Positions 20,548 through 37,118 of a stretch of 64,000 nucleotides of DNA are shown piece by piece. Every line of letters begins with the position of its first letter. Within the stretch, counting starts at the first letter, position 1. The position numbers were made by a program, and so were the translations under genes. The notes under the pieces are model-generated. The model did not search any database. It was not told the DNA's origin and was given only the letters and a program-made list of their open reading frames with translations. Source of the stretch: Escherichia phage phiP4; the sequence record PP993145.1, one strand, 5' to 3'.

Positions 20548-20634
20548 TGGTGCTGGGCACAGGATTCGAACCTGCAGTGGGATTACTCCTCCTGATTACA
20601 AATCAGGTGCATTCAACCATTCTGCCAACCCAGC
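20548..20634 (-). tRNA. tRNA with long variable arm; anticodon loop TTTGTAA, formally anticodon TGT (Thr)
   Basis: Hand fold: 7-bp acceptor, CCA, 3-bp D-stem, 15-nt variable arm; identity ambiguous. Confidence 0.5.
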
Positions 20635-23053: not shown

Positions 23054-23130
23054 TGGTGCGTGACAAGGGATTCGAACCCTCAAAACCCGACTTCTAAGGA
23101 CGGTATGTATGCCAATTCCATCAATCACGC
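23054..23130 (-). tRNA. tRNA with Leu-type anticodon TAG but class I (short variable loop) architecture
   Basis: Hand fold: 7-bp acceptor GCGTGAT/GTCACGC, discriminator A, CCA, anticodon loop CTTAGAA, 5-nt variable loop. Confidence 0.5.
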
Positions 23131-25127: not shown

Positions 25128-25210
25128 TGGCGGGCCGTGTAGGATTCGAACCTACGTTGTCTTTCGACATGGATTAACAGTCCACCGCCAAACCGCTTGG
25201 CTAACGACCC
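25128..25210 (-). tRNA. tRNA with 13-nt variable arm and anticodon GTT (Asn as read; Tyr-like architecture)
   Basis: Hand fold: acceptor GGGTCGT/ACGGCCC, 3-bp D-stem, anticodon loop CTGTTAA, CCA. Confidence 0.5.
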
Positions 25211-26905: not shown

Positions 26906-27112
26906 CTAAACTCCAGACTCTTCAGCCAAGTCTAGACTAATAAGAGATATAGCCATAATTGCTGCTCCATGTTCTTTTTCTCCAGTTTCTTTAGCTAGAG
27001 TTATAATATCAAGAAATTGCTTATGAAAATCTGCAACCTCTTGAGTTAAACCCGCCTCAGCAATCATACCTTTAAGCATGAAACGTTGTGCGGTAATTTC
27101 AGGATTAGCCAT
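26906..27112 (-). CDS. hypothetical protein (68 aa)
   Basis: ORF track. Confidence 0.45.
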   Translation of the reverse strand: MANPEITAQRFMLKGMIAEAGLTQEVADFHKQFLDIITLAKETGEKEHGAAIMAISLISLDLAEESGV

Positions 27113-27272
27113 GTTGTTTCTCCAGTTTCATCTTTAATAGTCTACAAATAAAATCAATGTCTTCATCCGTGCCTAGATCTCTATCTTCAAGAGTTGCCTT
27201 GAAGTTTTTAGTCAATTCCATGAGAATAACTTCTCTAGAACGACGTGTTGGCGGAGGTGGATGTCTATACAT
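27105..27272 (-). CDS. small hypothetical protein (about 55 aa, below track threshold)
   Basis: Hand-translated ORF with 8-nt overlap onto the start of 26906..27112. Confidence 0.35.
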   Translation of the reverse strand: MYRHPPPPTRRSREVILMELTKNFKATLEDRDLGTDEDIDFICRLLKMKLEKQHG

Positions 27273-27287
27273 CTTATTTCCTTAATT

Positions 27288-27364
27288 TGGTAGGGGTGGT
27301 GGGATTCGAACCCACAAAACCTGAATTTTAAGTCCAGTACCTATGCCAATTCGATTACACCCCC
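27288..27364 (-). tRNA. tRNA with Leu-type anticodon TAA but class I (short variable loop) architecture
   Basis: Hand fold: acceptor GGGGGTG/CACCCCT with G1-U72, discriminator A, CCA, anticodon loop CTTAAAA. Confidence 0.5.
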
Positions 27365-27867: not shown

Positions 27868-27945
27868 TGGTGGCTCCCCGAGGATTCGAACCTACGTACC
27901 TTCCGGTTATGAGCCGGGTGCTCATACCATATGAGCTTGAGAACC
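27868..27945 (-). tRNA. tRNA with anticodon CAT (third CAT tRNA; Met or Ile2), imperfect T-stem
   Basis: Hand fold: acceptor GGTTCTC/GGGAGCC, D-arm GCTC/GAGC, anticodon loop CTCATAA, CCA. Confidence 0.5.
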
Positions 27946-32138: not shown

Positions 32139-32210
32139 TACCGACCGTAGGATTCGAACCTACATCTTCCACCAGTTACGGCTTGATAATACCAATTATA
32201 CTAGGACGGC
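32139..32210 (-). other. tRNA-like element with acceptor and perfect T-arm but no recognisable anticodon arm
   Basis: T-arm GTAGG-TTCGAAT-CCTAC; acceptor 6/7 paired; no CCA. Confidence 0.3.
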
Positions 32211-36323: not shown

Positions 36324-36539
36324 TCACTTGCCCAGCAGTTTAAAGATATTTTCCATAATAGTTTGGGCAGATTTTTCACTCTTGTTGGTTTCAGCCAACT
36401 TTAAAGCGAGTTCTTCCTGCTGTTTCTGAATATCAGCTGCGATTTTTTGATCAGCCTCAATACGAGCTTGAAGCTCATCAGTGATAGTGGTAAAGGAAGC
36501 AACGATTTCAGTAACGGAACGTGGTTTCTTAGAGAACAT
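36324..36539 (-). CDS. hypothetical protein (71 aa)
   Basis: ORF track. Confidence 0.4.
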   Translation of the reverse strand: MFSKKPRSVTEIVASFTTITDELQARIEADQKIAADIQKQQEELALKLAETNKSEKSAQTIMENIFKLLGK

Positions 36540-36602
36540 AAAAATATCCTTGATTAGTTAGAGAATTAGTAGATTGTAGGGGCTTCTGCCCCTATTTATC
36601 TA

Positions 36603-37118
36603 TTACTTCGCTTTACGCTTGCTAGCTGGTTTAGCAGATTTACGAGCAGAATCACCCGTGAACTTAATGCCTACACCGTAACACAGAGCGCGAACGTTAT
36701 CTTTACTATACTCTACGCCAAAGATATTTGGCTTAACAGAACCAAACTGTCCACGAGCATCACGTAGTACGTCTGCCGTTGGTTTACGCTTCTGGTTAAC
36801 TGCTTTCTCATAGTCTTTCATAGCCATACCATTACGAGAGAACAATTCAGCCCCAGCGTTGAAGCTCAGGGAAACTGGGGCAGATTTGTGGCCGTAATTT
36901 TCTACATACATAACCATTTTGTAGGATTTACGGGTGGCATTTTTAGCTTTAGGCTTCTGACGAATCGGAGCCGGATTATTCAGTGCTTGTGCAGCCTGAG
37001 CATCGGTAGGATGCTTACGCAGGTGGCGTTCCAGACGAGCTTTGCGATTAGCTTCGGTCTGCGGGAAAGTTTTAACTGCCGGAGCTGCTTGAGTTTTTGC
37101 GTTTTTCTGTTTAGCCAT
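36603..37118 (-). CDS. Lys/Ala-rich basic protein, possible DNA-binding (171 aa)
   Basis: Strongly basic termini (AKQKNAKTQAAPAVK ... KPASKRKAK). Confidence 0.5.
   Translation of the reverse strand: MAKQKNAKTQAAPAVKTFPQTEANRKARLERHLRKHPTDAQAAQALNNPAPIRQKPKAKNATRKSYKMVMYVENYGHKSAPVSLSFNAGAELFSRNGMAMKDYEKAVNQKRKPTADVLRDARGQFGSVKPNIFGVEYSKDNVRALCYGVGIKFTGDSARKSAKPASKRKAK

Follow-up and report, generated by a model that had tools for sequence, protein, structure and literature searches.

Can a tRNA that carries a leucine anticodon on a body without the long variable arm serve a coliphage as an ordinary leucine tRNA? This question is raised by a gene of Escherichia phage phiP4 (PP993145.1), located in a stretch of 64,000 nucleotides that was analysed as a whole and is referred to below as the window. 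A preliminary description of this DNA had placed at 27288-27364 a tRNA that combines the Leu-type anticodon UAA with a class I body, and had listed the loop CTTAAAA, a 5-nt variable loop and a discriminator A among its details. The points at issue are the structure of the gene and its leucine ancestry, its setting and distribution among phages and bacteria, and the manner in which its product would be charged and used in the host.

Structure of the tRNA-Leu(UAA) gene

ARAGORN and Rfam agree on a tRNA with the leucine anticodon UAA at this position, and place it on the minus strand, which the preliminary description had left unstated. The ARAGORN call coincides exactly with 27288-27364 (-), has a length of 77 nt and puts the anticodon taa at position 35. 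The Rfam tRNA model (RF00005) covers 27291-27364 at full length with 57.4 bits and an E value of ~2e-10 to 2e-12, and CUUAAAA falls in the anticodon loop of its covariance-model alignment. Read on the minus strand, the gene runs GGGGGUG UA AUC G AAUUGGCAUA GGU A CUGGA CUUAAAA UUCAG GUUUU in its 5' part, followed by GUGGG UUCGAAU CCCAC CACCCCU A CCA in its 3' part, and the anticodon loop, the 5-nt variable loop and the discriminator A listed earlier are each found in this reading. The acceptor stem of 7 bp opens with G1:U72 and is followed by U8 and A9. The D stem has 3 bp (A10:U25, U11:G24 and C12:G23), with G13 and A22 mismatched, and the D arm, with its large D loop, is of the class II style; the anticodon and T stems have 5 bp each, the T arm being GUGGG-UUCGAAU-CCCAC.

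The description of a class I body with a Leu-type anticodon is likewise borne out, both in the sequence and in the Rfam alignment, by a variable loop of 5 nt (GUUUU) in the place of an arm of more than 10 nt, the hallmark of class II. The anticodon UAA, on which ARAGORN and the covariance model agree, falls within the leucine anticodons (NAG or YAA, with A35). A type I (armless) tRNA-Leu is defined by a leucine anticodon, the leucine identity set and a variable loop of 4-5 nt, and all three are found here. A spacing-constrained class I pattern comprising the D, anticodon and T loops gave 1 match in the window and 0 matches in 100 shuffles. The MFE fold of the single sequence is not a cloverleaf (z -1.2). 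Such a result is often seen when a tRNA sequence lacks its modifications and has a weak D stem, and the MFE fold was set aside because the covariance model and the covariation among 89 homologs (see below) outweigh single-sequence folding. The locus is a real phage tRNA-Leu(UAA) gene, with a class II leucine body in which a 5-nt loop replaces the arm; its parts are collected in Table 1. Its anticodon loop contains the run A36-A37-A38, a motif linked to host TrmL and to i6A37 modification (PMC9976931).

Table 1. Coordinates in the window of the tRNA-Leu(UAA) gene, its parts, its neighbors and its paralog
Feature	Position	Strand	Basis
tRNA-Leu(UAA), 77 nt, type I (armless), CCA encoded	27288..27364	-	ARAGORN, Rfam, sequence, phage records
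Encoded CCA end	27288-27290	-	sequence
Discriminator A73	27291	-	sequence
Variable loop GUUUU, 5 nt; last U is U48, Levitt partner of A15	27316..27320	-	sequence, alignment
Anticodon loop CUUAAAA	27326-27332	-	sequence, Rfam alignment
Anticodon UAA (77-mer 35-37; Sprinzl 34-36)	27328..27330	-	ARAGORN, Rfam, sequence
Leu-type D loop AAUUGGCAUA (A14 A15 U16 U17 G18 G19 C20 A20a ...)	27342..27351	-	Leu-tRNA alignment
55-aa ORF (T5.074 / BF23 trn2.3 homolog), starts 15 nt after tRNA CCA	27105..27272	-	synteny with T5, BF23
Pair of small ORFs, one of 61 aa (CxxC motifs), one of 62 aa	27466..27848	-	T5/BF23 slot comparison
Armless tRNA-Leu(UAG), paralog	23054..23130	-	ARAGORN, alignment; sequence identical to BF23 tRNAL1

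Leucine ancestry and identity elements

The sequences aligned were the UAA tRNA, its UAG paralog and armless leucine tRNAs of Proteus, Aeromonas, Vibrio and Pseudomonas phages, together with the class II leucine tRNAs leuZ and leuW of E. coli, T4 Leu and T5 Leu1. In this alignment, the class I and class II leucine tRNAs are separated by one clean gap of 10 nt in the variable arm, and G1, U8, A14, A15, G18, G19, A20a, U33, A35, U48, the T loop and A73 are invariant across both classes. The leucine identity set of E. coli (Giege and Eriani 2023, PMC9976931) comprises A73, U8:A14, the Levitt pair A15:U48, G18G19, A20a and, in addition, the tertiary pairs that join the D loop to the T loop. According to the same source, the anticodon and the long arm are unneeded for leucine identity, and an E. 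coli tRNALeu truncated so as to lack the arm stays active. The phage tRNA carries every element of this list, discriminator A73 included, and its elbow is complete, with U8:A14, A15:U48, G18G19 at the leucine spacing, A20a, and U54, U55, C56 and A58 of the T loop.

Among the class II leucine tRNAs, leuZ and T4 tRNA-Leu(UAA) have the same anticodon as the phage tRNA, T4 has the same loop CUUAAAA as well, and leuZ has the same G1:U72 pair. Common to all three are A14 A15 Y Y G18 G19 N A20a, the 3-bp D stem, U48, the T loop and A73, and the T4 tRNA is 70% identical to that of the phage over 77 common columns. The differences are in size, since leuZ and the T4 tRNA have 87 nt and a variable arm ~10 nt longer than the 5 nt of the phage tRNA, and in position 32, which is U in leuZ and C in the phage. 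Human mitochondrial tRNALeu(UUR) resembles the UAA tRNA in being of type I, in its anticodon UAA and in an identity that depends on A73 and A14 (PMC9976931), but differs in its organellar origin, its fragile anticodon stem and the dedicated mitochondrial LeuRS that serves it.

The UAG paralog and tRNAL1 of BF23

The preliminary description had also noted that the D-loop string AATTGGCATA is shared with a UAG tRNA of the same window, and had suggested that the two are paralogs. Both points hold: the D loop, along with the variable loop, is common to the two tRNAs, which are each other's best match, at 74% identity, among the 23 window tRNAs compared. This value is only slightly above that found for unrelated tRNAs (~71%), and the acceptor stems differ completely; because of this small margin and these stems, the two genes are taken as members of one armless leucine family with no recent duplication behind them. 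Much of the sequence that they have in common is what LeuRS identity requires.

tRNAs with a CUA anticodon and A73 are open to mischarging by LysRS or GlnRS. According to a GenBank note (AJ604530), tRNAL1 of phage BF23, the identical counterpart of the UAG tRNA, suppresses amber codons effectively once its anticodon has been changed to CUA; this feature note is the sole source, as literature searches for suppressor experiments on T5 and BF23 tRNAs gave nothing specific. Amber suppression by tRNAL1 means that E. coli expresses, matures and charges an armless body of the Leu type and that its ribosomes use it, the inserted residue being unspecified in the note. In common with the UAA tRNA, tRNAL1 has the armless 77-nt build, the D loop AAUUGGCAUA, the variable loop GUUUU, A73 and CCA, whereas its anticodon (UAG), its acceptor stem and its position in the cluster are different.

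At the syntenic position, T5 has a class II tRNA-Leu(UAG) of 85 nt, so that the class II gene of T5 and the class I gene of BF23 and the window occupy the same place, adjoining tRNA-Ala(UGC). Of the records in the phage collection, 163 contain the class I allele and 54 the class II allele of the T5 type, and the two forms accordingly act as interchangeable alleles.

Two further features of the UAG paralog were observed. Its anticodon stem contains a U:U mismatch (77-mer positions 31 and 41; Sprinzl 30:40), and its position 37, at which tRNAs that read CUN usually carry m1G37, is A instead of the G37 of host leuW; A37 is also present in the UAG tRNAs of T5 and of Vibrio and Proteus phages.

Genomic setting and distribution among phages

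Between 19.5 and 31.7 kb of the window, ARAGORN finds 22 tRNA genes on the minus strand, in a region 95-98% identical to that of many Salmonella and Escherichia T5-like phages (Demerecviridae). The UAA gene itself is present with at least 99% identity in 291 phage records and with 95-99% in 33 further records, and its annotation is tRNA-Leu wherever the matching records annotate tRNAs. The close succession of the CCA and the 55-aa ORF, taken with the synteny with T5 and BF23, shows that the UAA tRNA sits in a co-directional early transcription unit of tRNAs and small ORFs.

The UAA gene is absent from T5 and BF23, which have in its slot the HNH homing endonuclease gene hegA, bounded by the T5.074 homolog and tRNA-Ile2(CAU). 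In the window, this slot (36379-37062 of T5, NC_005859) is filled by the UAA tRNA and the 61-aa and 62-aa ORFs. The tRNA/small-ORF cassette and the hegA cassette are alternatives at one site, and the UAA gene is dispensable, because T5 and BF23 do without it. The UAA tRNA was absent from the 5,426 complete E. coli genomes searched, which therefore hold no host or prophage copy.

Several other tRNAs of the cluster deserve mention. Rfam adds two that ARAGORN missed, at 27871-27945 (-), with 40.3 bits, and at 32139-32210 (-), with 35.5 bits; the former has the anticodon CAT and a weak T stem, and its position matches that of tRNA-Ile2(CAU) of T5 and BF23. At 20548-20634 (-) lies a tRNA of 87 nt with the Thr anticodon UGU and a variable region of ~15 nt, AGGAGTAATCCCACT, made of a GGA/TCC stem and a GTAA loop, which gives it a class II-like body and makes it the mirror of the armless leucine tRNA. 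It has the threonine identity pairs G1:C72 and C2:G71, together with A73, and the 87-nt gene is also annotated in phage slur09. The tRNA-Asn(GUU) at 25128-25210 (-) is 83 nt long, with a variable region of 13 nt, GTCGAAAGACAAC (GTC/GAC stem, GAAA loop). An origin of these two genes from T5 genes by simple insertion was rejected because the alignments are poor, both of the ordinary 75-nt Thr tRNAs of T5 and BF23 to the 87-nt Thr tRNA of the window and of the 78-nt Asn tRNA of T5 to the 83-nt tRNA-Asn(GUU).

Armless leucine tRNAs in other viruses and in bacteria

A scan of viral contigs with the class I pattern returned at least 120 contigs, for which the figures given here are sample proportions and not totals; the contigs come from IMG/VR and may include prophage or host fragments. 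The loci were chosen for an armless leucine tRNA, and among the matches listed, their 1121 ARAGORN tRNAs include 203 leucine tRNAs, 179 of which are short, and serine and tyrosine tRNAs that are long-armed in every case (74/74 and 28/28, respectively). The short leucine tRNAs among the matches listed carry UAA, UAG, CAA, GAG, CAG and AAG, all of them leucine anticodons. The Leu-type D-loop signature occurs in 142 class I leucine tRNAs, 9 class II leucine tRNAs and 27 other tRNAs, and A73 in 142 of the 142 CCA-ending class I leucine tRNAs (both counts again among the matches listed).

Conservation of the fold is equally apparent in the unique 77-nt viral homologs, 89 among the matches listed, which all have U8, A14, A15, G18, U48 and A73, with A20a in 88 of them. 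All stems covary among these homologs, in which canonical pairs amount to 94%, compared with 41-48% for shifted 3' partners, and 13:22 is unpaired in 88 of the 89, so that the 3-bp D stem is kept as in class II leucine tRNAs.

Because the first viral loci were selected for an armless leucine tRNA, an unbiased control sample of 119 viral loci was taken by means of a T-arm pattern with G73, a discriminator that leucine tRNAs never carry. In this sample, 20 of the 58 leucine tRNAs are armless, and the arm is kept by all 62 serine and all 18 tyrosine tRNAs, likewise among the matches listed; about one third of the viral leucine tRNAs of the control sample are of type I. The viral pattern matches the known requirements of the synthetases. 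Literature searches for phage tRNALeu of type I found nothing specific, and the searchable literature gave no description of the viral pattern in which leucine tRNAs lose the arm and serine and tyrosine tRNAs keep it.

The two forms can also coexist in one genome. One viral contig (L012, IMGVR_UViG_3300015244_001483) has three armless leucine tRNAs, CAA, UAG and UAA, at 151-603 (~450 nt), as well as a class II tRNA-Leu(UAG) at 1787-1871.

In bacteria, a pattern scan with one genome per species found at least 117 armless tRNALeu(UAA) genes, most of those listed standing alone on chromosomes of Actinomycetota (among them Nocardia, Gordonia, Mycobacterium, Rhodococcus, Arthrobacter and Rothia). 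The armless tRNALeu(UAA) is conserved across many Mycobacteriales and Micrococcales (loci L132-L251, e.g. L134 of Nocardia mikamii and L135 of Mycobacterium sp.), and a few such genes lie inside cyanobacterial tRNA arrays (L167, L243 and others). The type I tRNALeu of Actinomycetota share with the phage UAA tRNA the short variable loop, the Leu-type D arm, A73 and U48; that of Streptomyces coelicolor has the anticodon CAA, whereas the genes of Mycobacteriales and Micrococcales have UAA, as does the phage tRNA. They differ from the phage tRNA in being chromosomal and in being served by an actinobacterial LeuRS, the leucine-specific domain of which is reported to be necessary for type I charging (Fan et al. 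2019, PMC6614811). An armless leucine body is atypical of E. coli and Salmonella, common among phages and standard in Actinomycetota.

Codon usage

The preliminary description had proposed that UUA and CUA, as A/T-rich leucine codons, are favoured by the phage, and the comparison of 48 long ORFs of the window with 48 annotated genes of E. coli K-12 agrees with this proposal. UUA makes up 23.1% of the leucine codons in the window vs 12.1% in E. coli and CUA 19.6% vs 2.6%, whereas the share of CUG is 19.0% vs 53.6%. Given this excess, the two leucine tRNAs of the phage read exactly the codons that it over-uses. In 21 pairs of orthologs from the window and T5, with a mean identity of 90%, the window UUA codons stand at leucine of the T5 protein in 60 of 62 cases and the CUA codons in 34 of 37; the remaining leucine codons align with T5 leucine to much the same extent, and no sign of codon reassignment was seen in these pairs.

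Predicted charging and use in the host

From the gene order and the annotation of T5 and BF23, the UAA tRNA would be transcribed with the adjoining early genes and tRNAs by the host RNA polymerase from phage early promoters, and it would then be trimmed to a 77-nt tRNA that ends in its genome-encoded CCA. The five window ORFs of at least 400 aa include no aminoacyl-tRNA synthetase, and charging would therefore fall to the host LeuRS. On the identity elements, the BF23 note and the codon evidence, we infer that this enzyme leucylates the UAA tRNA by way of A73 and the elbow (U8:A14, A15:U48, G18G19 and A20a), and that it would ignore the anticodon and the variable arm. The charged tRNA would decode UUA and, probably by wobble, UUG. 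Together, the armless UAA and UAG tRNAs would supply UUA and CUA, which are heavily used by the phage (~39% G+C) and rarely by its enterobacterial host, and the UAA tRNA may also sustain translation once the host tRNAs are depleted.

Suppression by the BF23 paralog speaks for charging in general rather than for leucine in particular, because the inserted amino acid is not given. Moreover, E. coli LeuRS has been described as charging type II tRNALeu only and failed to charge the tRNALeu(CAA) of Streptomyces coelicolor, which is of type I (Fan et al. 2019, PMC6614811), and earlier work of the same group, cited there, has its leucine-specific domain favouring a large variable region. In view of these reports, the phage UAA tRNA may be a poor substrate of E. 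coli LeuRS. The phage also has a near-full tRNA set, and codon supplementation may therefore not be the sole or the main selective reason for the gene. Taking these points together, the best explanation of the locus, held with fairly high confidence, is a functional type I tRNA-Leu(UAA) that supplements codons and is charged by host LeuRS, the charging being the predicted part.

Counter-defence and other interpretations

A selective reason of another kind would be counter-defence. In this proposal, which adds to the decoding role and does not replace it, the armless shape evades the tRNA-cleaving nucleases of host defence systems or toxins, and the phage would be left with a leucine tRNA proof against cleavage while tRNALeu of the host is attacked or degraded. 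Retron-Eco7 and Septu (PtuAB) cut E. coli tRNATyr, a class II tRNA, in its variable loop, and T5 tRNATyr resists them owing to its distinctive variable loop (PMC13096335); in addition, the tRNAs of T5-like phages are known counter-defence tools (BF23 paper). Like the UAA tRNA, T5 tRNATyr comes from a T5-like phage, belongs to a normally class II family and has an altered variable region, but it keeps a long arm, and for T5 tRNATyr the role in counter-defence has been shown experimentally (PMC13096335). The proposal is further favoured by the frequency of armless leucine tRNAs in viral contigs (20/58 in the control sample, among the matches listed), by the circulation of both class I and class II tRNA-Leu(UAG) alleles in T5-like phages (163 and 54 records), and by anticodon loops that differ from those of the host, with C32 for U32 in the UAA tRNA and A37 for G37 in the UAG tRNA.

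Several observations weigh against it. Literature searches found no bacterial nuclease that acts on tRNALeu via the variable arm, and the bacterial Schlafen that has been studied cuts the anticodon arm of class I tRNAs. The serine and tyrosine tRNAs of phages always keep the arm (among the matches listed), for which synthetase requirements are a simpler account than defence pressure, and in Actinomycetota, where the argument from evasion is inapplicable, the armless tRNALeu is a normal chromosomal gene. Evasion by arm loss, though plausible by analogy, is, on balance, unlikely. The same low probability attaches to the fuller scenario in which phages would have shed the arm repeatedly in order to hide the leucine tRNA from nucleases or toxins that recognize the class II shape, the arm being one that LeuRS, unlike SerRS and TyrRS, could do without, with the UAA and UAG tRNAs as efficient substrates of LeuRS; if it is true, such efficient type I charging would contradict the published type II-only statement for the E. 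coli enzyme.

Two related leads were also followed. A role of bacterial Schlafen as a nuclease of type II tRNAs, by analogy with human SLFN11, was rejected for lack of support, as the targets of the system studied are class I tRNAs, those for Lys, Met and Ala among them. The paper of van den Berg et al. on anticodon-loop evasion contains nothing on variable arms or on leucine tRNA bodies.

It is very improbable that the UAA tRNA has a non-leucine identity, i.e. that a class I tRNA with a leucine anticodon is charged with another amino acid and acts as a recoding or mistranslating tRNA. Precedents for such a tRNA exist in the yeast mitochondrial tRNAThr(UAG) and the Ashbya tRNAAla(UAG), which are of class I and are not leucine acceptors (PMC7609411), and the reported preference or requirement of E. 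coli LeuRS for type II substrates (PMC6614811) points in the same direction. The phage tRNA, however, has the full leucine identity set, an acceptor stem with G3:C70 and not the alanine element G3:U70, and an anticodon loop of 7 nt as opposed to the 8 nt of the yeast mitochondrial tRNAThr(UAG) (PMC7609411). The phenylalanine elements G34, U20 and U59 are missing, the corresponding nucleotides being U34, C20 and A59. A35 and A36 rule out the anticodon-reading LysRS, GlnRS, IleRS and ThrRS by their identity sets. Furthermore, UUA and CUA stand at conserved leucine positions relative to T5, which is itself without the UAA tRNA, and six different leucine anticodons are found on the same armless body in other viruses. 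The recoding interpretation was rejected on the identity elements and on the alignment of codons to residues with T5.

That the locus is a non-decoding tRNA-like element or a decaying gene, be it processing punctuation, a homing-endonuclease target or a pseudogene, is hardly credible: the variable slot with hegA in T5 and BF23, the annotated tRNA-like stable RNAs of unknown function in the tRNA regions of T5-like phages and the non-cloverleaf MFE fold would fit such a reading, but against it stand a perfect cloverleaf with the universal tRNA nucleotides, the leucine identity set and an encoded CCA, an identity of at least 99% in 291 genomes, and, in phages of Aeromonas, Proteus, Vibrio and Pseudomonas, divergent homologs that keep the structure via compensatory changes.

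Implications

The UAA tRNA most likely serves in decoding like any ordinary tRNA, with leucine supplied to it by the host LeuRS, and its role fits the usual view that phage tRNAs cover codons poorly read by the host. The effect on annotation is little, the gene being already tRNA-Leu in hundreds of T5-like records, and the novelty is limited to the setting, as earlier discussion of type I tRNALeu has concerned mitochondria and Streptomyces and not enterobacterial phages. The type I leucine tRNAs of E. coli and Salmonella phages provide natural substrates for probing a LeuRS that has been described as type II-only, and armless leucine tRNAs are possibly compact scaffolds for orthogonal or suppressor tRNAs. 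If the loss of the arm also protects from tRNA-cleaving defences, it would represent a new tactic in the tRNA arms race between phages and their hosts.
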